DNA from: Ophelia neglecta | Lineage: Eukaryota | DNA length: 64,000 nt | Direction: 5' to 3' | Assembly: GCA_965285935.1 (NCBI GenBank) | Contig: OZ260665.1 | Span: 5,704,001-5,768,000 of the forward strand | In this document: positions 9,370 through 63,299 of the stretch, in pieces | Position numbering within the stretch: the first letter of the stretch is position 1 | Layout of the letters: every line of letters starts with the position of its first letter | Translations under genes and position numbers: made by a program | The notes under the pieces: generated by a model | What the model saw: the letters and a program-made list of their open reading frames with translations, nothing else | Database searches by the model: none | Told to the model about the DNA's origin: nothing

Positions 9370-12040
9370 GGAGCGGGGGGTGGGGGGTGGGGGGTGGCCA
9401 GAGAGATTGTCAATGAGGAACGGGAGGTCAGGAGGGTGTTAGGGGGAGAGGAGTGGTCAGAGAGATTGTCAGTGAGGAACGGGTGGTCAGGGGGGGTGTT
9501 AGAGGGAGAGTGGTGGTCAGAGAGATTGTCAGTGAGGAACGGTTGGTCAGGGGGTTGTTAGAGGGAGCGGGGTGGTCAGAGAGTTTGTCAGTGAGGAACG
9601 GGTGGTCAGAGAGATTGTCAGTGAGGAACGGGTGGTCAGGGGGGTGTTAGAGGGAGCGGGGTGGTCAGAGAGTTTGTCAGTGAGGAACGGGTGGTCAGAG
9701 GGAGGGGGTGAGAGGGAGAGGGGTGGCCAGAGAGATTGTCAGTGAGGAACGGGTGGTCAGGGGGGTGTTAGAGGGAGAGGTGTGGTCATAGAGTTTGTCA
9801 GTGAGGAACGGTTGGTCAGGGGGTTGTTAGAGGGAGCGGGGTGGTCAGAGAGTTTGTCAGTGAGGAACGGGTGGTCAGAGAGATTGTCAGTGAGGAATGG
9901 GTGGTCAGGGGGTTGTTAGAGGGAGCGGGGTGGTCAGAGAGTTTGCAATGAGGAACGGGTGGTCAGGGGGGCGTGAGAGGGAGAGGTGTGGCCAGAGAGA
10001 TTGTCAGTGAGGAACGGGTGGTCAGGGGGGTGTTAGAGGGAGAGGTGTGGTCATAGAGTTTGTCAGTGAGGAACGGGTGGTCAGGGGGGTGTTAGAGGGA
10101 GCGGGGTGGTCAGAGAGATTGTCAGTGAGGAACGGGTGGTCAGGGGGGTGTTAGAGGGAGAGGTGTGGTCATAGAGTTTGTCAGTGAGGAACGGGTGGTC
10201 AGGGGGGTGTTAGAGGGAGAGGGGTGGTCAGAGAGTTTGTCAGTGAGGAACGGCGGGTCAGGGGGGTGTTAGAGGGAGAGGGGTGGTCAGAGAGTTTGTC
10301 AGTGAGGAACGGGTGGTCAGGGGGGTGTTAGAGGGAGAGGTGTGGTCATAGAGTTTGTCAGTGAGGAACGGGTGGTCAGGGGGGTGTTAGAGGGAGAGGG
10401 GTGGTCAGAGAGTTTGTCAGTGAGGAACGGCAGATCAGGGGGGTGTTAGAGGGAGAGGGGTGGTCAGAGAGATTGTCAGTGAGGAACGGGTGGTCAGGGG
10501 GGCGTGAGAGGGAGAGGTGTGGCCAGAGAGATTGTCAGTGAGGAACGGGTGGTCAGGGGGGTGTTAGAGGGAGAGGTGTGGCCAGAGAGTTTGTCAGTGA
10601 GGAACGGGTGGTCAGGGGGGTGTTAGAGGGAGAGGGGTGGTCAGAGAGTTTGTCAGTGAGGAACGGCGGGTCAGGGGGGTGTTAGAGGGAGAGGGGTGGT
10701 CAGAGAGATTGTCAGTGAGGAACGGGTGGTCAGGGGGGCGTGAGAGGGAGAGGTGTGGCCAGAGAGATTGTCAGTGAGGAACGGGTGGTCAGGGGGGTGT
10801 TAGAGGGAGAGGTGTGGCCAGAGAGTTTGTCAGTGAGGAACGGGTGGTCAGGGGGGTGTTAGAGGGAGAGGTGTCGCTAGAGAGATTGTCAGTGAGGAAC
10901 GGGTGGTCAGGGGGGGGGGGTGTTAGAGGGAGAGGGGTGGTCAGAGAGTTTGTTAGTGAGGAACGGGTGGTCAGGGGGGTGTTAGAGGGAGCGGGGTGGT
11001 CAGAGAGTTTGTCAGTGAGGAACGGGTGGTCAGGGGGGTGTTGGAGGGAGCGGGGTGGTCAGAGAGTTTGTCAGTGAGGAACGGGTGGTCAGGGGGGCGT
11101 GAGATGGAGAGGTGTGGCCAGAGAGATTGTCAGTGAGGAACGGGTGGTCAGGGGGCGTGAGAGGGAGAGAGGTGGTCAGAGAGTTTGTCAGTGAGGAACG
11201 GGTGGTCAGGGGGGTGTTAGAGGGAGAGGGGTGGTCAGAGAGATTGTCAGTGAGGAACGGGTGGTCAGGGGGGCGTGAGAGGGAGAGGTGTGGCCAGAGA
11301 GATTGTCAATGAGGAACGGGTGGTCGGGGGGGTGTTAGAGGGAGAGGTGTGGCCAGAGAGTTTGTCAGTGAGGAACGGGTGGTCAGGGGGTTGTTAGAGG
11401 GAGAGGGGTGGTCAGAGAGTTTGTCAGTGAGGAACGGGTGGTCAGAGAGATTGTCAGTGAGGAACGGGTGGTCATGGGGCGTGAGAGAGAGAGGGGTGGT
11501 CAGAGAGATGGAACGGGTGAGGAACGGTTGTTCAGGGGGTTGTTAGAAGGAGGGGGTGGTCAGAGAGTTTGTCAGTGAGGAACGGGTGGTCAGGGGGGCG
11601 TGAGAGGGAGAGGGGTGGTCAGCGAGATTGTCAGTGAGGAACGGGTGAGGAACGGTTGTTCAGGGGGGTGTTAGAAGGAGGGGGTGGTCAGAGAGTTTGT
11701 CAGTGAGGAACGGGTGGTCAGGGGGGCGTGAGAGGGAGAGGGGTGGTCAGCGAGATTGTCAGTGAGGAACGGGTGAGGAACGGTTGTTCAGGGGGGTGTT
11801 AGAGGGAGAGGGGTGGTCAGAGAGGTTGTCAGTGAGGAACGGATGGTCAGGGGGGTGTTAGAGGGAGAGGGGTGGTCAGAGAGGTTGTCAGTGAGGAACG
11901 GGTGGTCATGGGGCGTGAGAGGGAGAGGGGTGGTCAGAGAGATTATCAGTGAGGAACGGGTGGTCAGGGGGGCGTTAGAGGGAGAGTGGTGATCAGAGAG
12001 GTTGTCAGTTAGGAACGGGTGGTCAGGGGGGCGTGAGAGG
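9370..12040 (+). repeat. G-rich tandem satellite, about 59-bp unit built from two about 30-bp GGTGGTCAG-initiated subunits, about 45 copies
   Basis: Consensus about ggtggtcagagagtttgtcagtgaggaacgggtggtcaggggggtgttagagggagagg; the register shifts by 1 nt per 60-nt line at 10201-10440. Degenerate GGTGGTCAG-containing sequence continues to about 12370. Confidence 0.95.
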
Positions 12041-16854: not shown

Positions 16855-19800
16855 TTACTTCTTTGAAAAGTACATGAAATCCTGGAAAGAAGAAACCTTT
16901 TCAGTTTCACTCAAACAGTGGCATGAGTTCTGAACACAGATTATTCAAAGCAAATATGGATTAGTACACCATGCAATTTGAAGACAAAAATGCAAACGGT
17001 AACTTGGCGATAGGGTGTTCATAGTTTACGGCTATATAAGTCCTTACATTTGAAACATACAATTGTGGAATGAGAGATACGTGATGGATTTGGTTTCAAC
17101 CTTATTACTAAAGTCTCATTTGATTGTATAAGCATTTCATTCATGTTTTAATACAAAATGCAGTTCAAACATTGACATAAAACTATAAAGGAGACAGAGA
17201 GAGCTCATAGGCACGAGTTATGTTTTGTACATATCTCAACAAGGCGTAACTCACGATAAGGAAGAGGGCTCCCATAAAGGTTGCTTTCATTGAAATATCC
17301 AGGTTCATCGGAACTACAAAAGGAAATTGAGAATGCAGGTTACCTGGCAGAAAATCCTCGATCTTTAGTGTGAAATTATTTATAAAATCGCCCAAATTGA
17401 TCAGGAAGCATCAGGTGACAGACCCACAAATATCTTTTTTCTTCTTTATAATTTTAAAAGAATGTACATGTACCAAGTTAAAAATAACATATCAGTTGGA
17501 AAGTTCCAAACCCACCATTCCCGCTTTCCAATATGTTATTCCCAGTATAAATGTAATAGCTAGGTGGTATTTTGATTAAATACCTGGGTTAAGTTTTAAG
17601 AACAGATTTGTTAGTTATCAGAATATGTTATGATGTCATAAAATACCTGCTTATTTGTAAAATTTGGAAGAGAGCCAAATTCGGCAGCTCATACGAAGAG
17701 CATGTTATCATTCTTGTGTTATCAAACATGCTTTTTATGTGAGCCAAACAGGTTGTTATATAAATTGGAAATATACCTTGTTCATTAAACTTATGGGCGT
17801 CCAGCAAATCAATTTCCCTTGTGCTGGCGTCCAGATCATCATATTTGAATTTGTAAAACCTATACTTGTACATTCATGTTTGTTTTGATCAAGTAAACAA
17901 TATATCAATCAAACTATTAGGGTTGAGTAATACGGGTACATACATGAGACGGAGAATGAATCGGCGTCGGTTAGAAACTCTTTGGCCAGTCCACTCCATT
18001 GCTTTGATACGATCCCTATCTCTGATACCTCGCCTGCATCCGTGATCTAACGATACATGAAATAAACTTAAAATCTTTAAACGTTCGAAGGAGTAGTCAT
18101 TAATACAGCATGCCCCCATCGGTTAAAAATGAATAGTCTTTGATATGCCTTAATACAATTTCCATGTGTTATTCTCTTTCGGAAAGAAAGAGGTGAGGAT
18201 AAATTTTAAATCAAAAGACGGATGTATATGGTGATAGTGGTAACGCGCGAGGAATGGCGACTGATTGTCATGATCAATGACACCTGTTGACGATCAGATA
18301 TTAAGAAGATTAATTGGGTAAGGCCCGGAGGTAATAACATGATTAGCACTAAATAAGCACTACCGGGAAATGTAAATCTCCACAGCATGGACAATGGCCG
18401 ACATGACCAGGTCCTTTGAAGCGTCACTTACCGGGAACTGTAAATCTCCACAGCAGGGACAATGGCCGACATGACCAGGTCCTTTGAAGCGTCACTTACC
18501 GGGAACTGTAAATCTCCACAGCAGGGACAATGGCCGACATGACCAGGTGTGTGACGCGTCACTTACCGGGAACTGTAAATCTCCACAGCAGGGACAATGA
18601 CGGTCTTTATACGTGTTACCTACCCGGAATTATAAATCTTCGCAGTGCCAGTGAAGCAGTGCCTGACATAACACTGTTGTTTGCCGTTGACTTACCGCAA
18701 ACTGTAAATTTTCCAAGAAAGGCTAGCGACAGATGTGACAAGCTCATTTTAATGTGTAACTTATGGGAATTGAATATGTCCAGAGCAGGCGTAAGTGAAA
18801 TCCATAACTCCTTTGTCATGTCACTTACCGGGAATTGTAAATCTCCACAGCAGGAATGATGACACACACAACACGTTGGATTCACGTGCCACTTACCGGG
18901 AATTGTAAATCTCCACAGCAGGGACAATGACAGACACAACATGGCCCGTTGATATGTCCCACAGGCTCCATCTCAGGCGTCATCACCACATACTTCGGCT
19001 TCCATGCACTCTTACTAATTAAAAAAAAACAATCGTAATTCTCTTTTGTGTGGATTAACACGACACTGCAAAGCCTTGTCTGAGAACAACGTCCTGTCTA
19101 AGAACAACTCCCTGCCTAAGAACAATACCCTGCCTGAGAACAACACCCTGTCTGAGAACAACGCTTTGTCTAAGAACAACACCCTGTCTAAGAACAACGT
19201 CCTGTTTAAAAACAACGCCCTGTCTGGGAACAACGCCCTGTCTAAGAACAACGCCCTGTCTGGGAACAACACCCTGTTAGAGAACAACGCCCTGTCTGAG
19301 AACAACGACCTGTCTAAGAAAAACGCCCTGTCTGAGAACAACGACCTGTCTAAGTACAACGCCCTGTCTAAGAACAACACCCTGCCTGAGAACAACGCAC
19401 TGTCTGAGAACAACACCCTGTTAGAGAACAACACCCTGTCTAAGAACAACGCCCTGTCTGGGAACAACACCCTGTTAGAGAACAACGCCCTGTCTGAGAA
19501 CAACGACCTGTCTAAGAAAAACGCCCTGTCTGAGAACAACGACCTGTCTAAGTACAACGCCCTGTCTAAGAACAACACCCTGCCTGAGAACAACGCCCTG
19601 TCTGAGAACAACGCCCTGTCTGAGAACAACACCCTGTCTGAGAACAACGCCCTGCCTGAGAACAACACCCTGCCTGAGAACAACACCCTGTCTGAGGACA
19701 ACGCCCTGTCTGAGAACAACACCCTGTTAGAGAACAACGCCCTGTTAGAAAACAACGCCCTGTCTAAGAACAACGCCCTGTCTGAGGACAACACCCTGCC

Positions 19801-39500: not shown

Positions 39501-42500
39501 ATATTTATTTGATCCCAAAAGTGGTGATATATTTTAAGATAAAAATCATATTAGTTTTGAATTGATGAACAACATGACTCTTACAAAGGTAACAGCAATT
39601 ATGTGGTAACATTTCATTCATAGTTTAACAACAGCATCGACTACGAAGAACTTTGTTTTAACCTTTGGTGCTATGTTCCGGGTGTGGGTTGCAGACAATC
39701 TGACAGCATTGTTCCCGCCGAAGGAACGGACTGCACGCCCTCTGGCGATGGCTCCAAGGTGAGCTATGATTATTTCGACACCCGTACACAACAAATGTGT
39801 TCTTCTAATGATGATTCAATACTAATATAATCCCTGCTAATATATTTACTTATATTGTGCTGACACGTCATTCTCTATCAGGATATGCTAGATCATGGCT
39901 TGTCCTAACCTGGCCATTGAAATTGATTGATGTCTGATTACTCCAGAGAGTGCAAGTAAATAAAGGAACATTAATTCATTACACCTTAATAAACCCATTT
40001 CCACATCAGCTCCACTGCATGACCGTATTTTGTGATATGCGGCGATTATTGCAATGTCGGGTCCTCCTATGCTAGTGCTGAACTCAACCGCTTCCTATGA
40101 ATCCGCAGATTTGAGCCTGGTTCCGCGCAAATAATGAAGTGCGTGTGCCCTAGTCTATTTCGCCTTCCATTAGCCGCCATCCCATGGGGCTAATTAACGG
40201 AGCAATATTTTAAGTTAATCGGGTGCTCCAACACGAACAGGCAGCTGGGAAGAAAAAATCTTGCCCGCAATTGCGGGCTAAAGCATCCAAAGCCAAACAT
40301 CGCGTTTGACCTTTTGCTAGCAGACAGCTATGTACCACCGTGTCTGTGAGAGGTTAATACCAAGATGAGACCATCCCAGTCAGCGGACAGTATGCATTCC
40401 TCCAAATGTAGTGGTTTAGAGTATCTAAACTTGATTTGTGTTGGCTAGAACACCATGTTAACAAGTAAAACAAAGAAAACGTTACCAGAAACCATGTATG
40501 ACTAAACATTGACTGTTAAAAGACTCCACCGTGGTAATCTGTTATAAAAGCGATTTGTTCTTGTTACGAGTAACTTAAGCTGGTGTTGTCTCTGTCTCGT
40601 ACTTTGAGGCCGGGGTTTTATTTTGTGCTTTTGGACCAATAGATGAACTGCATAGAAAATGTATCTGTTGTCACAGGTAATTGATTAGAAAATTAGTTGA
40701 ATGGATAGCCATTCCTAAAACCAATACTAATAATGCAATATTCGCTTTCAACAGGTTTGTTCGCGAGCACGGTGTATTGAAAAGCTGCTAACTCTCAACG
40801 GTAAGTAAAAAACACATTCATAATTTATTCTATCGGTTGAAATAGTAAGATCGGCGTATTTTTGCGACCCAGTTAATTAGTGGATAATTCTTTAAATGCG
40901 TAATGTAATAAAGTCAATAGTGTGTTTTTAAAATGTGGATAGTTGACATTGTTCCTCTACGAGAAAATGTAATCTTTTTGTATTAATTGCATGAGACGTA
41001 TTTTCGATTATCCCCGTTCAAACCAGTAGTACGGAGCAGTATATTTAGTCGTAATGTTTACTTTCTTATTGCAGATATCGAATCTTGTACGCCGACATCT
41101 ATCGGTCTGGAAGTACCCGATAGTACGTTATTTCGAACACAAAGTAGCCTAATACTACTTTCAATTCATTACTTATAGAATTAAACCATAATAAAGGAAG
41201 AATCGATGCGACAGTTTGTTGTGTATAGTGCTATAATTCGTTCTAATATTTGTTATTTGCAGGCTGTTTCGAATTAGACCCCGAGTTTGCACTCTCAGAT
41301 GGATCAAACACAACCTGTTCTGCTTATGTCAACAGTTATCCAAGATCTTGTAATTCAGACCCTGCGGTACAGAAGTATTGTTGCTTCTTTTGTAAAGCAT
41401 ATAACAACACTATTGGTAAGTACATTTTATTGCAGCTGACTATTCCTGTTGATTTTGGACTGCAATAATGATAACTAGCTACTCCGTTGCTACAATAATA
41501 CTTGTACAATAACTACATGTGAGGTCATTGTTCTTAGTATGCCCAGATGACTACGGCTTCACACTTTCACAACTTACATGTGAAGACATCACTGAGCAAC
41601 ATCCTTCACTTTGTCTGACCTTTCCCAGAGTCACTGAGTTTTGCTGCGCTGCTTGTCATCGTGCCGGACTGGTTTACATACAACCCAGTATGTACTGTTA
41701 CTTTTTTCTGAAACATACATGTTTTAACGCAACTTTGAACACATTTTGTTACCATATCATATTGGTTTATGTACAGAAATTGCCTTATTTCTAGCAGCAT
41801 CAGAATCGTCTACTGCAACAAACACAATTCCTGAAATCACTACGAGCACTACCGCTGCGGCATCCACTACAACTACCACGGATTATACATCCACTGCAAC
41901 TACTTCAGACGCTCCATCCCCTACAACTACCACAACTACTACACATACTCCATCTCCAACAACTTCAACTGGTCATCCATCTACTACAACTACTACTGTT
42001 GCTCCATCTCCCACTATTACCACTGTTGCTCCATCGCCCACAACTTCAACTGGTGATCCATCTGCTACAACTACTACTGTTGCTCCAACTCCCACAACTA
42101 CTATTGAGACTCCATCTACAACAACTACTACTAATTTTCAAACTACCAACACAACTTTTAATACTTCGTCAAGCACAACCACTGCGGTTTTTCAACCCAC
42201 AATAGTCACCACAACTGTGTCTTTGCCAATCACAAGCCAGAACACATTCGCGGATCCAACAAGCACTCCTACAAGGGTTCCCGAGATTAGCACCACCTTA
42301 CCGGAACCTGTGGGTAAGTTTGGCACAATTCGCATTTAGTGCGCTCCATTTATTTCAGAAATCATATGGACGTGAAGGTGTTCGTTTTTAACTCTGTCTC
42401 ACGGTGCCACTGTTGCCGCAGGCTGACTAAATGATTTCGCTACTAGCGGACATGAGCGGGGTTTATCAATTGCCATATTAATGGAGTTTTTTCGTCTTTT

Positions 42501-45500
42501 GAACCCTTCTACCTTTTATTTCTAGAAATCATTCATATTTTTACCTTTATAAGCAATCAAACATGCGTTTATATAAGACATGCGTATATATAATAAGCTA
42601 TCCGTAATCTCAACTGGTTACCTATAAATGAAACACAGGATATATCCTTAATCACGGCTGGTCACTTTTGATAACTGCCTATGGTAAAGAAAATCCTATT
42701 ATAGCAAGGGAAGGTCCAATGCTGGTAAAGAACTCATTAAAACCATTGACTATGACCTGTTAGTCAGATTCTAACCTGCCATTAATATCAAAATTCCATT
42801 AATATCAAAATTCCTTTTTACTAGTTCTATTTAAAATATCGTTAATTGTAGTCCATGTCGGTTTAATGTCATTTCTAAATTTGAGAAAACGAGAATCATT
42901 ATGTTGTCTTTCTTTTGCTAAAAATATATTTCGATTGAGGATTGTGTTGTAAGCACTAAGATCAGATTTCAGAGTTTTGTATATACAAACATAAAAACAT
43001 ACACATTGATTGTCTCTCACAAGTAGAGAGCGGCAAGTATAATATCCCGTATATCTTAGAGGTGACTGGAGTGTATCCGACCCACGGACCTGTATCAGGC
43101 GGAACAAGGGTGATGATCAGCGTAACTGGGCTCCGTCAGGACGATCTAGCAGCGGTCCGCATTGGACCGCAACAAGCTGACCAGCACAGCTGGTAGGTCT
43201 TTGATAGTAGAACCAGTCTTAGTATGGTACTAAGTGTAAAAGTTTACGTCAAGTCGGTTTTAATAAAGCAGACAAAGAGTGAAATATCGAGGTGACCTAT
43301 ATGCCAAACCGGTGCCTGGCTGGCTTCGTTTAGATCCATTATATTTCAAAGTACCACCGATATTTAACTAAGTTTCTTATACCTGTTAATCTTTTTTAAT
43401 TTCATCTTAAGGTTTAATTTCATCTTGTTCTTAGGATATCCGGAGCTATAATCATCATCACCTCATTCGTTCATGATACCAACGAACCACAAAACATCTC
43501 GTTATTGCTGACCGACGACTCCGTGATAGGTTCATCGTTTACCTTCACCTACAAACCTGACCCAGTGGTGACTAACATCTACCCCCTAAACACCATTCGC
43601 AGGTCTGTGAAAATCATGCTGCAATTTTACAAGTACACACGGCACAATCTATTATAGCGATTCAGAAACTCTAGCGCAGGCTGATAGGATGATGAACATT
43701 CTCTGCCTAAAACACGGCTCTTACGCAGGGAAGGGTAACGAAATACGTTTTTATCTTTATGGCACCTGGTTTCCGATTGGGCCTCTTCGGTTGTACCAGC
43801 ATTAAAAACAGTTTTCATAAGGTTAGAAATAAAGCAAACTATGAATTATTATTCATCGATGATGTTTCTTTGTCTGCCTGGTGTCCACTACTGTTTATTA
43901 AAGATATCTTGGTTTTGATACGTTTTTTATATTAATTAACCATGCTTCAACCATATAACCAGGGATATCCAAGTCCAAATAATGTAAACTTGCAGTATTT
44001 TATATAATTGTACCTCTGACAGGTTAGCTCTAATTGAGAATAGAGAATTCAGGTCTAAACGTTTAGAGGATATAATCCCAAAAAAGGCACGATCGCACCA
44101 TGTTAAACTGGCAATAACTAATATCTTACTTTGTTTAGGCCTTGTGCTGCTGTATGTACTTAAATATGTGGTTTTTAAATTTGACTGTTTAGGAATTGTT
44201 TCTTATTATAAATGTGAATTACACCTGGCGATTGATGTATATAGGCATAAAAACATAGTACACCTGTAGCATGCGTGAAAACCTACGATGAAGGGAGGTA
44301 ATTCAAACGTTGCTAAATGTGGCTTATATTTGCCTGTAGTGGTGGTACTAAGCTAAACGTCGAAGGACAGAACTTAGACTGTGTGATATATGTGCCTTAC
44401 ATTTTAACTGTAGTGGCGGTACCAAGCTGACAGTCGAGGGACGGTACTTAGACTCGGTGGCGGAGCCTGTATTACAACTCACTATCATCCCAGTAGGAAC
44501 TCCGGGGGCCAGAAGACGACGGGAAGCCCCGGAAGACGTCACTTTAACAAGTGTCAGTTTTACCTTCAATATATTAAGCATATAAAATTGTTGATTTTGT
44601 CTGAACCAGGGATCATTTCTGATGTTTGGATGCATTAGAATATTTTAATATTCAGTAAATCATTCACCCCTGAAGAGACCACTTGTCATGCGAGACCAAT
44701 AAATCTAGACTTAGGCATGGTCGCTGGTCAGAATATAATATACCAAATACAATATGCGTGATATTTTATCTACTGAAGGGTTTAACAGGAAAATGGGATA
44801 ACCATTTCAGGAATGTCTCAAGGAGACGGTAACTTTTAGTCGAATGACATGTCAGACTCCGAACACGACAGAATACATCAGTCAGAACCCTAACGAGGAG
44901 TACGACTTGTATATGGGCCTGGTGTTAGACGGAGTGCCCACGTATAGAAACCTGACGGCAGTACTACCACAATACGGAGAGCTTAACCTTCATTCAGACC
45001 CATCCTTCACAACATGGTCAGGCGTGAAAGTGATTGAACCAGGAAAGCATATCTCCGTAGAGGTGGGTGATGGTTTTTATTCTCTGGTCAAAATTACGAC
45101 CAACCCACATACCAATCATATCAATTTTAATTTGGTTCAATCATATCTATTTTCATAGTTTGGATTATACAAAAAGCCTAAGCCTTATCTATTGTATTTT
45201 CCAAAACGAAAAATACAAATAGACAAGCTTTTATTAGGATGAGGTGAGATTAGATGAATAGTTCGATACATATTTCAGTTCAGAATATAGATTTGCGTGT
45301 AGCACGTAGCACGCAAAGCACGTAACACATTATTTTGAATTTTGAAGCCGGTCGTTCCTTATGATTTCGGGCCGATTTAACGGACTGTTTTTGGTGGGTC
45401 CTTGACCTTGGTTGATGGATTTGCTTTGATTGCGTCATTTCAGCTCCCGTGTTCTGTTAGAATTGGCTTATATGCATGAACCATAGAAGGAAATATGTAT

Positions 45501-46961
45501 ACATCCTTGCTTGCATTATTCTTTATCTGGCGAGTTCTATTAAATAAAGGAACCCAAGATGGGGCGTTTCATAAGATCGCATTTGTTTATTCCTATGACA
45601 GACAAAGCTAAATAATGATCAAGAGTATACCATTAACTATGTCCAAAGTCATCAGGAACCAGCAGCCATACTACTAGCACCACATACATCAATAAATCAA
45701 TTCCTATCTCCCAAATAGTAAAAACATGTGATGAACCAAAGCATTCGAAAATGAACATTTGATATCACTAGCACTAAGAAGGTATACAAAATTGGAAAGT
45801 TTCCTTATGCAGGGTAACACTCTGGCGAAAGGATCTGGTATAGACGACTATACAGTTAAAATAGGAGAGGGTCGGTGTATGATGAAAGAACTACTGGACA
45901 ACGAGTTCCTGTGTCTCCCTCCTACCATACCGCCGCCACAAACCGCGGAGGACCAACTGTTAGGACCTAACGGCTACAACCTACTAGTACGCTGTCTATA
46001 TTTGAACTATGTATGAATTTGTTTTGGACCCGGATTCTGGAAGCATATTTAACTCATAACTTGGATTAAAATAAGTATAAAAGTGCTTAGTTTGCTGCTA
46101 TTCGATGTCCCTGGAAGCATAATTTGGTCCTAAACCTAGCCATTTGAGTCCTAAACTTAATCCTGGCCAATGCAAACAAATTCGGTGTCAGCTAAACGGT
46201 AGTAGCCTGATCTAATCACTAAAATTAAAACTGCTTCCAGAAACCGTCTGAATGTCCGATGAAATTAATGTATACTTATTGATTATTGATTATTGATTGA
46301 TTTCCAACCGCGTTTTTTCCCAGTGGCTGTCCTAGAGTAACAGATGAACTAATACTGATATTCAAATTGCATTACAGTTGAAAACAACAACTCGGTTTTT
46401 GTTAATTTATTTAATGTTCTTTTATTAAAGAATACAGCGAATTATTTCTTTACGTTTATGCGAGTTTTAGTTGACATGAATCATTATAACGCATAAGCTC
46501 TTCAGGATTATAATTTTTGTAAGCTCCACTTGTAGGTACGAGTTGGGTCCAGCGCTCTCAACCACGTGGGGCCGGTTCGCTATAAGCCCTCGAAGGAGTG
46601 GGATATATATGTAATAGCTGGATACTCGGTAACTGGGACGTCTGTCGTTATTGCCTTTATTATCGCATGCGTTTGGATTAGGGTCGGATGTAAAACCAGG
46701 AGAGAGATTACAAAACTAGAGGGCGACGACACATCGCCTGAAAGAACTAATCGTTATCACGATAACTTCAACCCCAATGATAGGGCAGTGGAATCACCTG
46801 GGTGGTCGTACGCGCCAAGGATAGTGGGACAGCAGCAAAGGGAGTGGGATTATCTGCCGCCTATAGACCAACGTGGCTACCATCGAGGATTCATTTTTCC
46901 ATATATAAACCCCTGGAAAACTCGCGGACCAAGTGTTGACAACGTTTATGAATACAACTGA
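33510..46961 (+). CDS. Membrane-anchored ADAMTS-like M12B metalloprotease fused to PLAC-like, mucin and plexin-type IPT domains (24 coding exons, about 1305 aa)
   Basis: Exons 33510-33591 (signal peptide MFCTRLTWIALGLCSMRSAPAIG), 33828-34048, 34422-34508, 35353-35512, 35831-35999 (RRHKR furin site), 36210-36288, 37020-37103, 37252-37415, 37536-37576, 37864-37969 (GLAWLGGVC...AAHELGH), 38589-38795 (NLGSKHD...YLMSP Met-turn), 39349-39490 and 39624-39758 and 40755-40800 (YSIDYQC...LWC...AEGTDC...C...C, ADAMTS Cys-rich), 41075-41122, 41263-41415 and 41538-41687 (C..C..C..CC..C), 41795-42313 (Thr-rich), 43027-43192, 43435-43602, 44414-44552, 44811-45062, 45813-45986 (IPT x3), 46536-46961 (TM and tail). 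Sum 3918 nt, frame open, all introns GT-AG except one GC-AG. Confidence 0.9.
42800..42980 (-). mobile_element. LINE ORF2 fragment (region between endonuclease and RT, CR1/L2-group-like)
   Basis: KTLKSDLSAYNTILNRNIFLAKERQHNDSRFLKFRNDIKPTWTTINDILNR resembles the Y.N.L...I..AK..Y....F.....D.K.TW..IN.IL motif of such elements. Confidence 0.55.
46031..46244. mobile_element. Probable MITE in intron 23
   Basis: Inverted termini ggattctggaagca ... tgcttccagaaacc. Confidence 0.45.
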
Positions 46962-52019: not shown

Positions 52020-52408
52020 TGCCATGTGTTCCCCTGCCTTTACCATCTCCCTAGCCACCTCCCACATCCCACAACCACCATCCCGTCTCTGCACCTTAAC
52101 TCCCTCACCACCAGCCCACACTACGGTAACCATCGTTCTTCGTGATTTTAGTAAGAACACGTTTACATACTATCCAATGTGTCACGAGATATCTCCCCCA
52201 TAAAATGTGGTGCAATGTTACAAGTGTATTTGCTTTCATTCGCAATAATGTTTTCCCCCGTGGTTTGTCAGCTAAAAAAAGCACACTCTATTAGTGGTAT
52301 TGTTCAGTAATGGCCAGAGACCACTTGGCCATTTCATCCCATTATAAAACATATAGCACGTAAAGCCTATGGACATGAAGATTATCATGTAACAAGCATT
52401 ATGATTGG
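52020..52408 (+). mobile_element. Left part of an unclassified repeat copy, split by the BEL insertion (continues at 61859-62070)
   Basis: Colinear with the uninterrupted copy at 63300-63990 on both sides of the BEL element. Confidence 0.6.
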
Positions 52409-52723
52409 TGTAAAATGTAGAATTGGTTTAGCGTGGCTGCGCATTAATTGTATCCAGCGCCAGTAATTTATAGTCGCGCCACTACCGTTCGTCGCGCCAC
52501 CTATCTGTAGGCGTGCTTGTACCTCCATCTGTATCTACAAATCTCTCTCTGTGAATAAGTCTCCGCCCTGAACGGACGTGTGTTCTCGTTTACTATTTAT
52601 CTATCAACCTTCGTATTGGCGTGGTGGCAGCGTCGGAAAACTTCGAAAACCTGCGCCGGAATCTACATGTCCGTTAGAACCCGCCAGTTGGCTTTATTCC
52701 TACCTACTACATAGTGAGAAGAC

Positions 52724-55128
52724 ATGGCTAACGCACACAGAGCACCCAAACAATGGACACTGACGAAGACGGAAACCATCAACAGCTTCGAAAACTGGAA
52801 ACAGAATTTGATCTACACATTATCACTAGACCCTACATTTACCAACTTTGTGACAGAAGGCGCATGGTGGCAAAAGAAAACACGCAACGCCCCTGAACGC
52901 GGATTCATCGACGACGGATTGGAAGTGATTCAGGCACAACGGAAAACGGCTGCTCAAAAGGTAACATCGTTAGAACTTATGTTAGGCCAAATAGCAAATT
53001 ACTGCCCCATTATCGCCAGGAACACTATAGTACGAAACACCAGATCCCTACCTGAGATATGGCAAGCAATAAGGTTACACTATGGCTTTCAATGTACGGG
53101 AGGACACTTCCTAGACTTAGCCGAAATTAAACAAGCATTTGAAGAAAAGCCAGAGGACCTTTTCCAACGCATTATGGCATTCGTGGAAGATAACCTACTC
53201 AAAGCTGGAGGAGGAATAACACACCATGAGGAAGAACCGGAAGAGGACGAGGAAATGTCCGCCTCTTTAGAGAACATGATATTCCTTATATGGCTAAGGC
53301 TACTAAATGCCGACCTACCCTAACTCGTAAAACAAAGGTACGGGCCTGAACTACGAACCCGTACCCTGGCAAGCCTCAAACCTGAAATCTCACAAGCCCT
53401 TCAATCCCTAATGGATGAATTACAAACCACAGAAGAAGTACGCACAATGCGAACCAGCAACTACAACCGTACCCCAAGTACAAAACCCAAGGGACCACGC
53501 ATGTCAAAAGTTTGCCCCCTATGCAAACAAGCCGGACGCCCTGAATTCTTCCATTTTCTAAGCCAATGTACCCACCTACCAAGACAAGACCAACAGTTTA
53601 TGTCACGCTCTAGAAGTGTAGCAGTTGCAGCCCCTACTGAACTAATTGTAGTCCCACGGAGTGTAACCCTAGGCCAACTAACTGCTATACACCTCCAACT
53701 AGAGCACCCGAGCAGCAACCAATTGAAACAGATAGTAAACAGATACTTCTACGCCCTGGACCTAGAAAAATATATCATCACAGTATCTGCATCATGCAAT
53801 CAGTGTATCGCAATCTCTACGGCGCCAAAACATGCACCAGAATTCACGACCGACGAACCACCACCCATCATCGGCACATCCTTTGCAGCCGATGTCCTAC
53901 GTCGTACCCGTCAAGTCATCCTTGTCGTCAGAGAAAATATCACATCGTACACCAAAACCTGCCTTCTCCCAGACGAAACCAAGGACTCGTTACGGTCAGG
54001 CCTCATCCAACTATGCATAGACCTAAGACCACTTGATGGACCCCTGGCCGTAATCAGAACAGACCCGGCCCCAGGTTTCGCAGCCCTCACAAACGACACT
54101 GTACTCCAACAATCAAGACTGACTGTAGAGGTAGGCAGACGGAAAAATGTCAATAAAAACCCAATAGCAGAAAAAGCAGTCCAGGAACTCCAAACTGAAC
54201 TACGCAAATTGTGAATGGGGAACCCCATCTCTGCCACTACATTGGCAATAGCAACAGCTACACTCAACACCCGATTGAGGGATCCAGGGCTTTCATCTAG
54301 GGAAATGCTCTTGCAAAGAGACCAGTTCAGCCAGTCTCAAATATCTCTCAGTGACACTCAACTGATCCAAAATAAACACTCCCAACGCGTTAACAACCAC
54401 AAACCGAGCGCAAAGAGCAAGGCCCCCGGACTGAAGCCTTTACCCACACCATCAATCAACACTGGAGATATAATCTACATCCATTCCGACCTAAACAAAA
54501 CGAAGGCCAGAGAACGCTACATGGTGGGAGAAACCGACGGAGAATGGTGTCATGTCCGAAAACTCACCAGTAACAAACTACGTTCTATGACCTACAAAGT
54601 CAAGAAATCTCAATGTTACAAGGTACCCACCGACATCCCCATCGATATCATCCCCAATGATAGCAATCTACACGAAGAAGATGATATATATCTACTTTCG
54701 ATGCCGCAGAAACCATACCTGTACCACCAGACATTCCTGAGATCATAAGACACCCTGTTAAGGAGCCCAATCATGTACTAAATGAAAATACACCACTAGC
54801 AAACAACAGGACCATCCCTGCAGAGGATCCGGGCCCCCTTCAAACCAGAGGTTACCCGCCCGAGGTGCCTGCCACCTACCGACCAAGACACGACAGCATA
54901 CCAACCCAGCCTGCAGATGATCCGGGCCCCCTACAAACCAGAGGTTACCCGCCCGAGGTGCCTGCAACCTACCGACCAAGACACGACAGCATACCAACCC
55001 TGCCCGCAGACGATCCGGGCCCCCTACAAACCAGAGGCTACCCGCCCGAGGTACATGCAGCCCACCAATCGAGACGATCCACCAGAAACAAAACTAAACC
55101 TAATTACCTAAAAGACTATGTTACCTAA
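52724..55128 (+). pseudogene. gag-integrase polyprotein remnant of the nested element (no PR/RT/RNase H)
   Basis: One frame from 52724 with in-frame stops at 53321-53323 (TAA) and 54212-54214 (TGA). Gag, then CPLC...H...C knuckle, HHCC zinc finger (HLQLEH...CNQC), core SFAADV...TDPAPG...AEKAVQE, a frameshift near 54700, and C-terminal RRSTRNKTKPNYLKDY. Confidence 0.85.
54815..55085 (+). repeat. 93-bp tandem repeat (about 2.8 copies) in the integrase C-terminal region
   Basis: gatccgggcccc at 54826, 54919 and 55012. Confidence 0.9.
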
Positions 55129-55962
55129 CAGTATAGTTATGTATCCTTTTCGATTTGCAATAAGCACCAGTTCTATCTAGAGAGGGGTAAGAGAAGAATA
55201 TTCACGCCAGTAATTTATAGTCGCGCCACTACCGTTCGTCGCGCCACCTATCTGTAGGCGTGCTTGTACCTCCATCTGTATCTACAAATCTCTCTCTGTG
55301 AATAAGTCTCCGCCCTGAACGGACGTGTGTTCTCGTTTACTATTTATCTATCAACCTTCGTATTGGCGCAGATTCCCAAAATTTCCTTGTTTGGTTTGCT
55401 CGGAGAGACACCTTATTGTGTGCCTTGTCATGTTCCTAAACCCCTTTCGGGTTTTTGAATACAAATTAACCTTGGAGTCACATGGCCACCCGTGCAGGGG
55501 CAGTGACGTTTTTGGTCAGTTCCGGTTTTCAGTCATTTATGGGAAGAATTCCATGTCAAGTCAGAAGGGATAAAATTTGTCATCATCTCGCTATATACAT
55601 ATTGTTTCAGGATGGCTCAATGTTGTAAGTAGATTTGGAAGTACTATAGAACAAAATTGTAACCAAGATTTGTTGCCTCGACATAAAATTCTTTGTTTTA
55701 TTCGACCTTAAAGTTAGGTAAACATGCAGCCTCGCTGGGTACATTTGGTGTATTATGTTTGCAGGTAGCACCACACGTTCATGTACAAGTGCGTAACTAC
55801 AAAGGAGCCAAATCTGTCAAATTCAGCAAAATAAACCTGTCACGTCTTCGATCCACGACTTATTGATTATTTCACAATAACACAGTGCTACAACAGTAGT
55901 CGTCATGGGACATGACTTACAACTTTAGGCAGCGTGACAGAGTATCAATGACCGAATGAGGG

Positions 55963-57230
55963 TTGGCTTACACCATGGAGTCCAAATTAAATACAATAAA
56001 GGGGCTTGACAAGCAGTTTGGCGTGCAGACAAATGTGCTTGAGAGACTTATAAAGAGTGAATGTCCAGACGTCGAAGAAGTAAAAAGGGAACATAAAAGG
56101 TGGACAAATATCTACGACACGCTGTTAGGCACTCAGGAAGAATACTGCACCTTGTTATCAGACGCTGATAGGGCTGATTATGAGGAATCTGTGTGGAAAT
56201 CAAGGAAAGCAGGCCTAGCTGAATTTCATAGCCATGTACAAGAATTTATCGTCAGTTTGACGGCTGAAACAGATGTCAAGGGAACACAGGAGGAAGATCA
56301 AATGTCAGTTTGCTTGGGTGTGTCAACCTTCTAAATAGCCAGTTGGAGGAGGAGAGGAAGAAAATAGGGATTCAGACTAGACTTGAGGCTTTGAAGCTTG
56401 AAAGGAAAAGGTTACAGAATGAGGAAGAAGAATTACGGCTCCATGCTGAGATGAGCTTGTGTCAGGCAGAGGAAAAACACTCCAGTCCACAAAAAAACAG
56501 GCTACAGGCCATTTGATTCGTTTTCTCCTTTCCAAGATAAACATTGCCCATCGGATGATGGTAAGAATCCAGTTAAATTGGATTTACAATCAGAAAGCAA
56601 GGATCCTCTCAATGAACTAATGCAGGCCATGCAGCTTCCCCCCGCTGAATTACCAAAATTTAATGGGGATCCAATTGAATATTGGCCATTCATTAGAGCC
56701 TTTGAAAATGGAGTGGAAATGAAAACTAAGCATCCAAATGCACGTCTCATCCGGCTAATGCAGTATTGTACAGGGTCCGCGCACCGGGCGATTCGGTGTT
56801 GTGCTGTGATGAATCCATCTGATGGTTATGTTCGGGCTAGGCAAATATTGGAAGAAAGATTCGGGAATAATTACACAATTTCGGAACAATGGGCCTGTTG
56901 TCAAGCCCAACGACAGACTGGGATTGAGAAGATTTGCTGATGAACTGACTGGTTGTTATGAAACGCTGAAAGCAATGAGCAGGCTGTAGGAGCTCAATAA
57001 TAGCAGAAGTATATTGGCAATCGTACAAAAGTTGCCTTACTTCCTGCAATCAAGATGGCGTAGGGAGGCATACAAAATCAAACTTCATTCTATTGGAGCT
57101 GCTACCATTGAAGACGTCACTCAATTTGTTCAGGCATGTGCCGAAGAGCTGGATGACCCAGTGTTTGGTGTTTTATGTGACCAAAGCAAAGTTGGTAAAT
57201 AGACTACCCGAGATAGACAAAGCCGAAAGG
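55963..57230 (+). pseudogene. BEL gag region, fragmented by frameshifts and stops
   Basis: ORFs 55963, 56310, 56578 (LPPAELPKFNGDPIEYWPFIRAFE) and 57014 (IVQKLPYFLQSRW...DPVFG). Confidence 0.85.
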
Positions 57231-57232
57231 CT

Positions 57233-59262
57233 TCAGTCTTTCGGTTCTTTCAAGAAACTTGGACCATGGAACCATCTCTCTAACTTCTCTGGGTTTAGCA
57301 TTTCCTTCACAGAAAGGCCACGTGATGCATCATCGGCCGGATTCTCTCGCGAGCTGACATGATTCCACTGCTCCGGTGTGGTGTGGTTTAGTATAGAGCT
57401 CACTCGATTGGCAACAAATGTCTGGAAACGACTGTTGTGATTGTGCAAGTATTGAAGCACGATCATGCTATCTGTCCAGTAGTATGACTTGCTTACCATG
57501 ATGTCCATTTCCCTTAAAAGCATCTCTCCCAGCTTAACCGCCAGCGCTGCCGCTGAAAGTTCAAGCCTGGGTATTGTCAACTGTTTAATGGGTGCCAATC
57601 TGGACTTTGACAGCAGTAGATTGACAGTAACATGTCCATTAGAATCATTCCACTTCAAATATGACACGCACCCATACCCCAACTGCGACCCGTCGGCAAA
57701 GGTGTGAAGCTCTATTGTGGCTGTATCTGGAAATTTGGCTGGCCCTATACACCGAGGTATTTTAATGTTGCAGCTGGCTAAGATCACTCTGCCAATTCTC
57801 CCATGGTTCTAACAATGCCCTTGGTAATGGATCGTCCCATTGTTGTCCCAACCTCGTGAGTTCCTGGAGAATAAACTTGGCCTTGAGAACCACTGGACTT
57901 ATCAAGCCCAATGGGTCGTACACCGTCGAGACTGTACTCAGAACACCCCTCCTGGTATTTGGATTGCCTGGCAGAGCGATATAGAATTCCAAGTTGTCTC
58001 TCTCTTCATTAGGGTCCCATCTGATCCCCAAAGCTCTCTCAAATGGCAGGTCATTTTGATCTAGATCCAAGTTCATCACATCCTTGCCCCTATCTTTCAC
58101 TGGTATAGCCTTCAACAATTCCTTGTTATTGCTCACCCATTTCTTAAGATTAAAGCCACCTTCACGAAGCAGTTCACGGAGTTGTTCTGCCAGATCCTTG
58201 CCTTCTTCTACTGTGTCCATACCCTTCAGGCAATCATCAACATAAAAATGTCTTTCTACTGTCTTTACTGCCTGCTGTGAAAACTCGCTACCCTTTTCTT
58301 CCGCTGTAAGCCTTAGCGCAAAATTGGCGCAACTGGAACTCCAAACCCCACCAAACAAATGTCTCGTCATCCTGTAAGTTTCTGGCTGTTTTGATATGTC
58401 CCCTTGCGGCCACCACAAAAAACGTAAAGCATCTCTATCTTGACTTTCGACAACAACTTGATGGAACATGGCTTCAACATCCGCCATAAATGCAATTTTT
58501 CCAAATCTAAATCTAATCAATACCCCTACCAGGCTTGAAGTGAGATTGGTCCCTTGATGTACATTCTGGTTGAGGGAGGTTTCATGAGCTTTGGCGGCAC
58601 AGTCAAATACGATCCTGATCTTACCAGGCTTATTAGGACTGGTCACAGGATGGTGTGGCAAATACCAGGTTTTACTCTGACCCTGGTCCAATTGCTCTGG
58701 TGGCACATGTTCAGTATATCACTTCCTCAACAGATCATTGATCCCTGTAGTGTACATGTCGTATAGCTCCTTATCCTTTGACAGGCGTCTACCAAGTAGC
58801 TTAAGCCTATTCTCTGCCATAAACCTGCTGTCAGGTAATACTGGAGTCTGCTTGACAAATGGTATTGGGAGTGTTTAGTGCCCCCCTTTGAACTTGACCC
58901 TTTCTCTCCACAGATTCACTACCCTTTTATCGTTGATTGACATACTCTCAACTTCCTCACATACAGTGTCTATTTCCCAGAATTTCTGAACCTGTTTTGT
59001 CAACTCATCAGTCCGAACAAAATTACTGATACATTTGGACTTCCCCTCTACGCCTAATGGGCCATTGATGGTCCAACCTAAATGTGTACGGACTGCATAA
59101 GGGGCTGACATATCATTTTCTTTGCACCTAACCTCTAAAGGTATCAAGGCTGAAGGCACATCTTTACCTATCAGCAAATGAATTTCTGAATTTGGTAATC
59201 CTATCCCTTGCAGGTGCGGCCATGCAATTTCACTTATACTTTCTACACCACCCTTGATTTGG
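57233..59262 (-). pseudogene. BEL RT and RNase H region, inverted relative to the element
   Basis: Minus-strand ORFs: WPHL...LLIG...LGW; WYLPHHPV...KIRIVFDCAA...ADVEAMFHQV...FYVDD...YDPLG; ELHTFADGS...TIPRLEL...WTDS...NPADDASRG. Confidence 0.92.
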
Positions 59263-60823
59263 TGAAGAAGAAGCCTATGGTAGATAAGGTCGACCCGCAT
59301 AACCCTGAAATCAAGAAGGAAGCCAAAACATATCTAACATCGCCTGATGGTGGACATCATGGGCCTGATGTTATGGATCACCTTTTCACATGGTACTCCA
59401 CTTGGGAAAAGCTAATTAAAGCTGTTGTATGGATTCTCAGAGTCAAAACAAAACTCAGAAATAAAGCATCGGTCAAATATCATGCTGGCGCCGAATGTGG
59501 TGCAGAGCATACTGGAGAAATTAGTGTAGCTGAGGTCCAACGTGCCAAGGCTGATATTGTCAGATATGTACAACTTCAATCATATCATAGGGAGATAAAG
59601 GATTTAAATGCTAGCGATGGTGTCAACAGAGGAAGCGTAAAGGCAGGCAGTTTGATAGCGAAGCTGAGTCCCCTCATGCATCGGGATGGTTTACTTCGTG
59701 TTGGTGGTCGCCTTGGCAACACGATGATGTCAGACAATGCCAAGCACCAGATAATTTTGCCGAACAAACACCCCGTCGTGGAACTCATCATCAAAAGTCG
59801 ACATCACGAATGTGGTCACTCTGGGATAGAGCATGTGCTTTCGAACATTAGAGAGAAATACTGGATAGTAAAGGGAAGGAGTGCTGTCAAGAGAGTTTTG
59901 AAGGACTATTTTCTATGTAAAAGGCTCACGACTGGTCCATGTAGCCAACGAATGGCAGACTTGCCCGAAGACAGGGTGACGCCAGACAAACCTCCATTCA
60001 GTTCAGTTGGGATAGATTATTTTGTGCCGTACCTGGTGAAACGGGGCCGGAGCCTACATAAGAGATATGGATGTCTGTTTACATGTTTGACAACACGTGC
60101 TATCCACATTGAGGTGGCTGATTCGCTAGATACCGATGCCTTCTTAAATGCCTTGTACCGCTTCATTGCTAGGCGAGGGTGTCCAGAAATTTGCCGCAGT
60201 GACAATGGCACGAATCTGGTGGGGGCAGAACGCGAGCTTAGAGAGTCTATTCAAGACTGGAACCTTGACGCATGGGGGGTGCCTGGGAGAGGCAAATTCG
60301 GACAGTCCGAAAGGTCCTGGCAGCCACACTGAAAGAACAAACGCTTGATGATGAGAAGCTCAGAACGTACATGTGCATGGTCGAGGCAATGATAAACAGC
60401 AGACCGCTTACCAGGGTATCTGACGACCCACAAGATCCAGAACCGCTCACTCCAAACCATCTTTTGCTTCTTCGATCAGGCCCCAAACTCCCGCCTGGTG
60501 TCTTCGTCAAGGAGGATTTGTATAGTAAGCGTAGATGGAGGCAAGTGCAGTACATGGGCGATTTGTTCTGGCGAAGATGGCTACGAGAATACTTACCGTG
60601 TCTCCAGGAGAGGCAAAAATGGCTAAATCCGCGTCGCAACCTTATTGTGGGTGATCTGGTGTTACTGCTTGACGATAAACAACCACGGGGAATGTGGCCC
60701 TTTGGTGTGATAGTAGAAGCATATTCGGGCAAAGATAAGTTAGTCAGGTCAGTTAAGGTGAAAACCAGGACCAGTTGTCTGGTCAGACCTGTGGACAAGT
60801 TATGTCTAGTAGAAGGTGCTTAA
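59263..60823 (+). pseudogene. BEL integrase and C-terminal domain, with a deletion or frameshift near 60270
   Basis: LRVGGRL...HHECGHSG...MADLP...GIDYF...AIHIE...SDNGTN; [10 protein letters not shown]...NSRPL...[10 protein letters not shown]...RPVDKLC. Confidence 0.92.
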
Positions 60824-63299
60824 GAAGATGTCGAAGTCAGTTATTTAAGGTAACCGTTCAGTATTTTTTTTTTGGATCACACTAATTGTTAGCACCTGCT
60901 ATGGGGTATCAGATATTATCAGATTACCAGATCAGGGTAAATAGATAAATATGCTGATGTAAGTGTACGGGAGATGTTTTGCTTAGACTAGTTTGTAAGT
61001 CGCAGGTATCTTGAGCAAAGTTCAGTGACTATTATATTGGGGTTGCCAAAGTGTCAAATAATTAGGTTGCAAGTAAATTTATTCAAAACCCCTTTGATAT
61101 GTGTTAATTATGGTTATGTGTCGAAACTTATTACCATGGCGCTGGTTAGCAATTTGTGGAGCCAGTTTATAGCCTTAATCATGTAATGTAAGACCAAGTA
61201 TGGTCTGACATGAATTTATTAGTTAAGATATTTTCAACTGTGACGAGGTAGTAATAAATGTTTTATGATATTGGTCTCATTTATTGGGGCCGTTGTAAAA
61301 TGTAGAATTGGTTTAGCGTGGCTGCGCATTAATTGTATCCAGATTCCCAAAATTTCCTTGTTTGGTTTGCTCGGAGAGACACCTTATTGTGTGCCTTGTC
61401 ATGCTCCTAAACCCCTTTCGGGTTTTTGAATACAAATTAACCTTTGAGTCACATGGCCACCCGCGCAGGGGCAGTGACGTTTTTGGTCAGTTCCGGTTTT
61501 CAGTCATTTATGGGAAGAATTCCATGTCAAGTCAGGAGGGATAAAATTTGTCATCATCTCGCTATATACATATTGTTTCAGGGAGGCTCAATGTTGTAAG
61601 TAGATTTGGAAGTACTATAGAACAAAATTGTAACCAAGATTTGTTGCCTCGACATAAAATTCTTTGTTTTATTCGATCTTAAAGTTAGGTAAACATGCAG
61701 CCACGCTGGGTACATTTGGTGTATTATGTTTGCAGGTAGCACCACACGTTCATGTACAAGTGCGTAACTACAAAGGAGCCAAATCTGTCAAATTCAGCAA
61801 AATAAACCTGTCACGTCTTCGATCCACGACTTATTGATTATTTCACAATAACAATTGGTAAAGAGCTGAACCAACATGATTGATATGTTTAGGGTGTAGC
61901 TGTAACGAGCATGTTAATATAGAATCATGTTCCGCTTCGTTGGTCTTAAGGCATATAATATACTCGATCCCGTCGAAGCGAATACCACTAAATGCCATTC
62001 CGGTGAACCTCTCTGTAGATGACAGAATATAATGTATTAAGCTTATCACATAACTGCAAGGCGTATCATTGTTTCATTAAATGCCGACATTTGCCCACCA
62101 GAGCATAGCTCTAAAGCATGTCGATCTGTGAGGTATTATTCTAGTTAGTTCAAATGGTCGTCTTCACGTTAATAAAGTTCTAACTAGACACATATACGTG
62201 CATGCTACGGATAGGTGAATTGGGATATCGATTATTTGTATTTAATGTGTACATAGCTGGGGACCGCGACTTATCTTAGGTAGGCATACGTGTACTGTTA
62301 TACGCTTATATCCTTTTCCAACCAATCGTCAGGAATTTTACAATGCTAAATTTCGGTTTTCTTATATTATAGAACGGCGAGAAACCATTGACGTGTAGCC
62401 TCTATGTATAAGGATTTATTAATGGTCAATACATTGCAGTAGGCTTTTATATACATCGTGTAGGTAAGTGAACTTAGAGTTGTCTATTGCACTCATTAGT
62501 TACCAAGGCTTCTTCGCACCTTAAAATATGATTGTGTCTAGTTTGCTAGCGTGGCAAATTAATTCCTCTATCCCCATATAACTGGCCGTCCGTGTCATCA
62601 TATATTTTAACCCTTCGAACAAACCACTGACTGCCTTCTTAGTCTAACAATCTGTATTATCACTCAGTTCTCTATCACCCTCTCTCTTTTACGGCTAACT
62701 CTCTATGGTGTACTTGCTCCCATCCCAAATATCCCCCTGTTGACCATATGCTTGATAACTGCTTGGATACACATCTTTCTCTGTTCCCTTAAATCCTCAC
62801 TTACTCCTTTCCTCTTTTTTCTTCATTTCGCAGTCGAAAGTTCGCTGTCCCTAGGTACTAATAACTTTCTTGACTTACGTCCCTATACTGATTAAGGCCC
62901 CAATTTGTTTTTTCTCTTGTCACTACCTTGATCATGCTCCCACACCATTTCTATTTCCGCCTCCCACCATCCATCAGTGATTGACCACCTCCATGGTCAT
63001 CCGATTTGACCGGACGACATCGCTGACTACAACCTCCCCTATGTCGGCCACCGTGAGACACGTACCCCCTCCCCCCCCCCCTCCTCTGACGGCTCCCTGA
63101 CCATGGGTGTCTCAATTTATCCCTGACTGCACACTGCCATCTGAGGTCATCCCTGCCCAGGTGTCTCCCTCTTAAGACCTCCATGACCTTCAGTCACCTC
63201 CCGAACACCACCCTGATCAGTAACCACTCACCTCCCTTTTGAACCCTCAACTATCAAAAATCCTTTCTATATTCGATCTGCCTATCGTCTCTATACTCC

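Follow-up and report, generated by a model that had tools for sequence, protein, structure and literature searches.

The Troyka group of LTR retrotransposons, which live in aquatic animals, was reportedly described in 2008, in a Repbase report. Repbase files the group under Gypsy (PMC12440569, PMC11673190); in 2024-2025 it was re-ranked as a superfamily apart from Gypsy (PMC12440569), and a place outside Gypsy is also given to it in PMC11673190. Troyka elements are defined by 5'-CG..CG-3' ends, with LTRs that start CGCCA in 573 of 603 cases and end TGGCG in 522 of 603, and by a 3-bp target-site duplication (PMC12440569, Kojima 2025). They encode a single Gag-Pol with a CX2CX8-10HX4C zinc knuckle and lack GPF/Y and env; their LTRs measure 100-400 bp and their internal parts 1,553-7,691 bp, and non-autonomous and internally deleted members are known (PMC12440569). 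The Kuafuorterviruses, with the reverse transcriptase (RT) motif IADD/VADD/LADD, are Troyka under another name (PMC11673190, Gong and Han 2024), and the group is mentioned in passing in the available part of PMC12859917. Retroviruses, according to the available part of PMC11054761, cut the 3' ends of their DNA beside a CA and join them to a staggered cut, the repair of which leaves a duplication of 4-6 bp. Among the papers found, none characterises a Troyka integrase.

In this study, we analysed an LTR element in a 64,000-nt stretch of the Ophelia neglecta genome (the window), together with its relatives elsewhere in that genome. The element is almost certainly an internally deleted Troyka, bounded by CGCCA...TGGCG termini and a duplicated CAG, that sits within the 5' LTR of a BEL/Pao element; it was likely primed by tRNA-Leu and likely integrated by a D,D(35)E enzyme with a 3-base stagger. 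It is a new, broken member of a known group and, as a dead copy of something already described, changes nothing by itself. The original prediction had named a close Troyka match as the outcome that would remove its novelty; CG..CG ends and a 3-bp duplication are indeed already published (PMC12440569), and since they are the hallmark of the group, that novelty is largely gone.

Structure of the Element and Its Insertion Site

Features are given on the plus strand unless stated otherwise; the target-site duplications and the empty site carry no strand. The 5' LTR (52458-52621) and the 3' LTR (55205-55368) are 164 bp each, start CGCCAGTA and end TATTGGCG, and were 100% identical in the repeat comparison, so the 164-bp CG...CG-ended LTRs of the original prediction were confirmed. 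They are bordered by CAG on the left (52455-52457) and on the right (55369-55371), and among duplication lengths from 1 to 8 only this one of 3 fits. The primer-binding site, TGGTGGCAGCG, adjoins the 5' LTR with a spacer of 0 as predicted, and its 11 nt (52622-52632) are complementary to the 3' end of tRNA-Leu(AAG/TAG), CCA included. The predicted empty site was also recovered: the left flank (52409-52457) and the right flank (55369 onward) are contiguous, with one CAG (61340-61342), in the 3' LTR of the host BEL/Pao element, and the same uninterrupted site is present in all eight other fetched genomic copies of that LTR.

The host element (52409-61853) shows BEL/Pao characters, namely Peptidase_A17 and DUF5641 domains besides an Integrase_H2C2 match, TG...CA ends and a 5-bp duplication (ATTGG, 52404-52408 and 61854-61858). 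Its LTRs are 560 bp each, the 5' LTR (52409-55882) being interrupted by the Troyka copy and the 3' LTR (61294-61853) intact. Part of its interior is inverted: the RT and Peptidase_A17 frames (57233-59333) run on the minus strand, opposite to the gag-side and integrase frames, which are on the plus strand.

The Troyka copy measures 2.9 kb, with an internal part of 2,583 bp. The gag part of its single gag-pol frame (52724-53624) shares 58% identity with P0106 over 114 aa and gave no match in a Pfam search; it contains an in-frame stop (53321-53323) and a CX2CX9HX4C zinc knuckle (53513-53569). The integrase part (53628-55128; Integrase_H2C2 E 2.4e-4, below the cut-off) holds an HHCC motif (53690-53806) and a D,D35E triad (D 53891, D 54062, E 54170), an in-frame stop (54212-54214), a 1-nt frameshift near 54700 and, in its tail, three 93-bp repeat units (54817-55095). 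Each unit encodes a 31-residue proline-rich repeat, of which another copy, L012, has roughly 15 (L012:1298-2671). A polypurine tract with 19 purines in 20 positions (55179-55198) ends 6 nt short of the 3' LTR. Between knuckle and integrase, a 2.6-kb deletion has removed protease, RT and RNase H; compared with the sister copy L011 it spans ~2,616 nt, is in frame and has its junction at a TTG 3-bp microhomology (53625-53627). Because the RT is deleted and stops and a frameshift are present, the window copy cannot make its own RT, nor can it move by itself. The original prediction, whose account of the ends and the duplication was borne out, had left these missing domains unmentioned.

Sister Copies and Genome Survey

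A search of the genome with the LTR returned ten matches, representing five insertions of the window family. One of them, L011 on contig C7, is 5,523 bp long, 96-97% identical to the window copy and has an internal part of 5,203 bp with one 1,676-codon frame. Pfam placed its domains in the order protease (352-433, weak, E 0.03-0.07), RT (712-852), RNase H (920-1057) and integrase zinc domain (1184-1236), and matched neither an env-type family nor a catalytic-core integrase family. All three scorable insertions of the family have 3-bp duplications (CAG, CAA, TGG). Two further copies on contig C1 were unscorable as they lack a 5' end, which was absent from the further stretches fetched as well.

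Beyond the window family, copies were collected by the pattern TGDCG followed by TGGTGGCAGC, which occurred 119 times in the genome (reversed control, 0). The first set comprised 92 loci, which gave 95 junction rows with one junction counted twice; a second LTR lay within reach in 59 of them but not in the other 36. Four pairs were dropped for an interrupted or degenerate 3' LTR (3) or a tandem copy (1), leaving 55, of which 50 showed an exact 3-bp duplication and none one of 4-7 bp. Of the 24 remaining junctions, which served as a held-out set, 17 gave scorable pairs, 6 were unpaired and one had a pair whose start could not be called; all 17 pairs had a 3-bp duplication, two of these being one site duplicated. 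Altogether, 67 of the 72 scorable pairs (window and C7 copies included; 66 distinct sites) carry an exact 3-bp duplication and 0 of 72 one of 4-7 bp, in line with the predicted length. In the other five pairs, four sites resemble one-base mismatches and one is unrelated.

The surveyed LTRs group into at least 23 families. Their starts, called by the C[GC]CCA nearest to the alignment edge, were CGCCA in 53, CCCCA in 4 and something else in 2 of the 59 first-set pairs. Families with other ends are invisible to this survey because selection used TGDCG beside this primer site.

The CCCCA starts belong to a Troyka family of their own (L036, L050, L057, L063, L037/L038, L049, L090), with solo LTRs at L124, L125, L128/L129 and L131. 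It has an IADD RT, 3-bp duplications and, in three copies, identical LTR pairs; the third base of the duplication is G in all six distinct exact duplications. CCCCA is not among the variants given for 603 Troyka LTR starts (PMC12440569). A reading of this family as having a GCCCCA start and a 2-bp duplication was rejected: the right flank repeats three bases at 6 distinct sites, and one solo LTR is preceded by C, not G.

At some junctions on different contigs or far apart, the same bases precede the LTR (L069, L070, L071 and L072; likewise L081-L084, L096, L097, L099 and L100), which suggests that these Troyka ends travel within another repeat or duplicated segment. At L037/L038, one Troyka is inserted ~1.5 kb inside another, an arrangement present twice, and L067/L068 is a tandem Troyka pair with one LTR in common.

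Classification of the Element

The described properties of Troyka recur in this family one after another (PMC12440569): the 5'-CG(CCA)...(TGG)CG-3' termini, whose borders are fixed here by the empty site, the 3-bp duplication of the window copy, the knuckle (CX2CX9HX4C), and the sizes, both of the window copy (164 bp and 2,583 bp) and of the internal part of L011. Features lying in the deleted segment of the window copy could be read from L011, which encodes a single Gag-Pol in the order protease-RT-RNase H-integrase with neither a tether nor env, has the RT motif KIADDL and shows no GPF/Y after the catalytic Glu; a GPF string occurred in 2 of 35 aligned proteins. An RT motif was visible in 53 of the 59 paired elements (IADD 48, LADD 4, IVDD 1), so that I/LADD is found in 52 of 59. 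The window copy differs from described Troyka as a deleted, stop-bearing derivative. With the Kuafuorterviruses of PMC11673190, the family shares the IADD/LADD motif, a length of 5-6 kb and RT blocks; in the available part of the supplement, the RT rows agree by eye at EYLNPSFLVKKP, SAMGMPGSETALEE and K[IL]ADDLYCGG, and the gag start encoded by one of the records is nearly identical. The main text of PMC11673190 describes neither ends nor duplication.

A homolog search gave 869 matches, and the 120 listed were 57-62% identical; the 12 named ones among these came from abalone, corals, anemone, acorn worm, eel, pearl oyster and mussel, all of them Troyka host groups. We also built an RT tree of 46 rows, comprising 19 CG-ended elements, 8 homologs, 18 YxDD RTs drawn from the genome's 30 top-ranking RNase H loci and one BEL, as a quick search without bootstrap in which the Gypsy-type rows were recognised by YxDD. 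The 18 YxDD Gypsy-type RTs split from the CG-ended elements and homologs (SH-aLRT 96; no labelled Troyka row), the CG side had a support of 81, and BEL formed a long branch. The protein of the eel Synaphobranchus joined two coral proteins (support 96), an eel and coral grouping published for Troyka lineage V1 (PMC12440569). Membership rests on the features, the by-eye comparison with the supplement and the shape of the tree. The assignment to Troyka and the 3-bp duplication that the original prediction had named for it were both right, as the published definition fits (PMC12440569); its wording "Gypsy-like" is out of date, both papers placing the group outside Gypsy and our tree separating the YxDD Gypsy-type RTs. 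Its further claim that default LTR finders would miss the family was too strong, given that default LTRharvest recovered two-LTR copies (PMC11673190). In the available part of the supplement, though, one record begins 5 bases before CGCCA, which suggests mis-set borders.

That the element is instead a member of Gypsy (Metaviridae) whose ends mutated from TG..CA is very unlikely, even though the domain order is that of Gypsy, the Ty3 RT-RNase H ranks first among the PDB sequences matched by the profile (E 3.6e-30) and Repbase places Troyka there. Ty3/Gypsy elements have TG...CA ends with 4-6-bp duplications and a YxDD RT with a CX2CX4HX4C knuckle, none of which was found here; the RT reads IADD, the knuckle is longer, and GPF/Y is absent from L011 and from 33 of 35 aligned proteins. 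The RT identity is 22-28% with the Gypsy-type RTs of this genome vs 46-67% with CG-ended elements and the homologs, and the idea of mutated ends is refuted by CG ends common to 23 LTR families. Another reading would have the borders mis-called, with true ends of TG..CA, another duplication length or a repeat produced by the assembly, for which we see next to no chance. LTR alignments do extend 1-7 bases beyond CGCCA in some pairs, but these overruns vary inside one family, as chance matches to host bases do, and a G ahead of the 3' LTR gives no indication of a G in the duplication (14/23 vs 18/27). The borders of the window copy are set by the empty site, 67 exact 3-bp duplications (66 distinct sites) agree with them, and the same reading applied to the host BEL element in the window returned the ordinary TG..CA ends and 5 bp.

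Target Sites, Primer and Integrase

Target sites of these Troyka elements show a sequence bias. CAG or CTG makes up 24 of the 67 exact duplications, vs 2.0 expected from flanking DNA, an about twelvefold excess that appears both in the first set (19/50 vs 1.5 expected) and in the held-out set (5/17 vs 0.5 expected). In 61 of the 67, A or T takes the middle position, and at least one CWG site occurs in 14 of 22 first-set families. This preference is likely set by the integrase. A wider flank preference (T at -5, A at -3 and the mirror positions) seen in the first 50 sites was absent from the 17 held-out ones and was dropped. A strand asymmetry, with G at position 3 in 45 of 67 and C at position 1 in 32 of 67, was noticed post hoc (p = 0.036 for the 66 distinct sites) and is a lead only.

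By its sequence, the primer site can base-pair with the 3' end of the tRNA-Leu(AAG/TAG) of this genome, for which 125 matching tRNA-end patterns were present; ARAGORN called all four fetched matches as Leu. Complementarity extends over 11 nt in the window copy, whereas other families reach up to 18 of the 18 nt read. At G000:C2:18449711-18529693, >80 pattern matches in 80 kb form a long array of tRNA-Leu-type 3' ends. The main text of PMC12440569 leaves primer tRNA, target preference, PBS, polypurine tract and CCCCA start unmentioned, although its supplements or the 2008 Repbase report may already contain the primer, the bias in target sites or the present family. Likewise, a CAG/CTG bias, an LTR-adjoining tRNA-Leu primer site, a 5'-CC family and a lineage-specific integrase loop are absent from the main texts of PMC12440569 and PMC11673190, though the supplements of PMC12440569 may cover some.

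The integrase model (mean pLDDT 79.6, pTM 0.50) matches retroviral intasome integrases, best that of PFV (E 6e-14, TM about 0.4), and has in common with the PFV, MMTV, HIV-1 and RSV enzymes the HHCC domain, the catalytic core and a beta-rich C-terminal domain. The loop that precedes the catalytic Glu is as long as in these enzymes but has other residues, the window's GRRKNVNKNPIAE aligning gap-free to MMTV GIPYNPQGQAIVE; in 22 integrases of this genome, the G, K, P and E of this stretch and three N residues never vary. Loop residues are located at the viral DNA end in PFV (Pro214/Gln215) and RSV (Ser150/Gln151), as stated in the available part of PMC7955051, and by our own mapping they fall on V and N of the window loop. 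Because these RSV and PFV residues sit at the viral DNA end, the lineage-specific pre-Glu loop would probably be the part that recognises the altered, G-ended DNA. The altered end recognition and stagger that the original prediction ascribed to the integrase is likewise what we infer here, with the different active-site loop as a correlate.

A route of replication can be proposed from these features. Reverse transcription of the element would likely start from a leucine-tRNA primer, and its D,D(35)E integrase would likely make target cuts staggered by 3 bases, with CAG/CTG as the most frequent site, so that retroviral chemistry may be carried out with 3-base stagger and G-ended strands. At the U5 cDNA end, little or no 3' trimming should be needed since the primer site adjoins the LTR; the U3 end may be trimmed, several bases lying between purine tract and LTR in these families. 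G instead of A would terminate both transferred strands, each of which would be joined to C where the target is CWG. Known enzymes differ in these respects: retroviral integrases cut beside an invariant CA and leave 4-6-bp duplications (available part of PMC11054761), and Ty3, which shares the domain order and a D,D(35)E integrase and provides the closest solved sequence in its RT-RNase H, has a CA end, a 5-bp duplication and a YxDD RT (available part of 10.1101/2021.07.27.453949). The same part of that source models Ty3 with a 2-nt overhang, unlike the U5 end expected here. On balance, we lean slightly towards Troyka integrases being sequence-selective, with more than 20 families that would pick palindromic CWG and join G ends to C, the shortest stagger reported for LTR integrases, a loop that no retrovirus has, and a 5'-CC left-end switch tolerated in a young family.

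A 3-bp stagger and G-ended DNA fall outside the 4-6-bp, CA-ended range of solved intasomes. The target bias, the named primer tRNA, the candidate end-reading loop and the natural 5'-CC variant offer concrete predictions on integrase geometry, stagger and end choice, as well as better annotation rules for Troyka elements.

Age and Origin of the Deleted Copy

No difference separates the two Troyka LTRs (0 of 164 positions), and the host BEL LTRs show 8 in 560, which indicates a recent Troyka insertion that postdates the BEL copy. The interior of the window copy bears 30 private changes in 2,037 compared columns. It is moderately probable that the deletion arose during or after the insertion in the window, because no other copy found has it. 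A somewhat less favoured but still serious possibility is a non-autonomous Troyka that had acquired its deletion and mutations before its last move, for which it relied on a helper from its own family acting in trans. All its cis signals are intact and its LTRs identical, while the interior is marked by a large deletion, a frameshift and two stops; had all 30 private changes followed the insertion, the LTRs should differ at 4.8 positions (P(0) = 0.009), and non-autonomous, internally deleted Troyka have precedent (PMC12440569). However, no second copy with the same deletion was present among 32 matches. Of the private coding changes, 18 of 28 are at third positions, and these changes likely date from the active lineage since most are of this kind. 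By our arithmetic, the neutral share alone (about 0.7% per site) predicts ~2.4 LTR differences (P(0) ~0.09), and the host BEL LTR difference caps the age at about the same level.

Other Features of the Window

Elsewhere in the window, two open frames at 44802-46961 resemble exons of a receptor-type membrane protein, with a hydrophobic stretch in 46536-46961, and had no Pfam match. Tandem arrays were seen at 9356-11490 (59-bp unit), 18344-19800 (68/18-bp) and 41831-42190 (27-bp), the last of which reads as a Thr/Ser/Pro-rich, mucin-like stretch.
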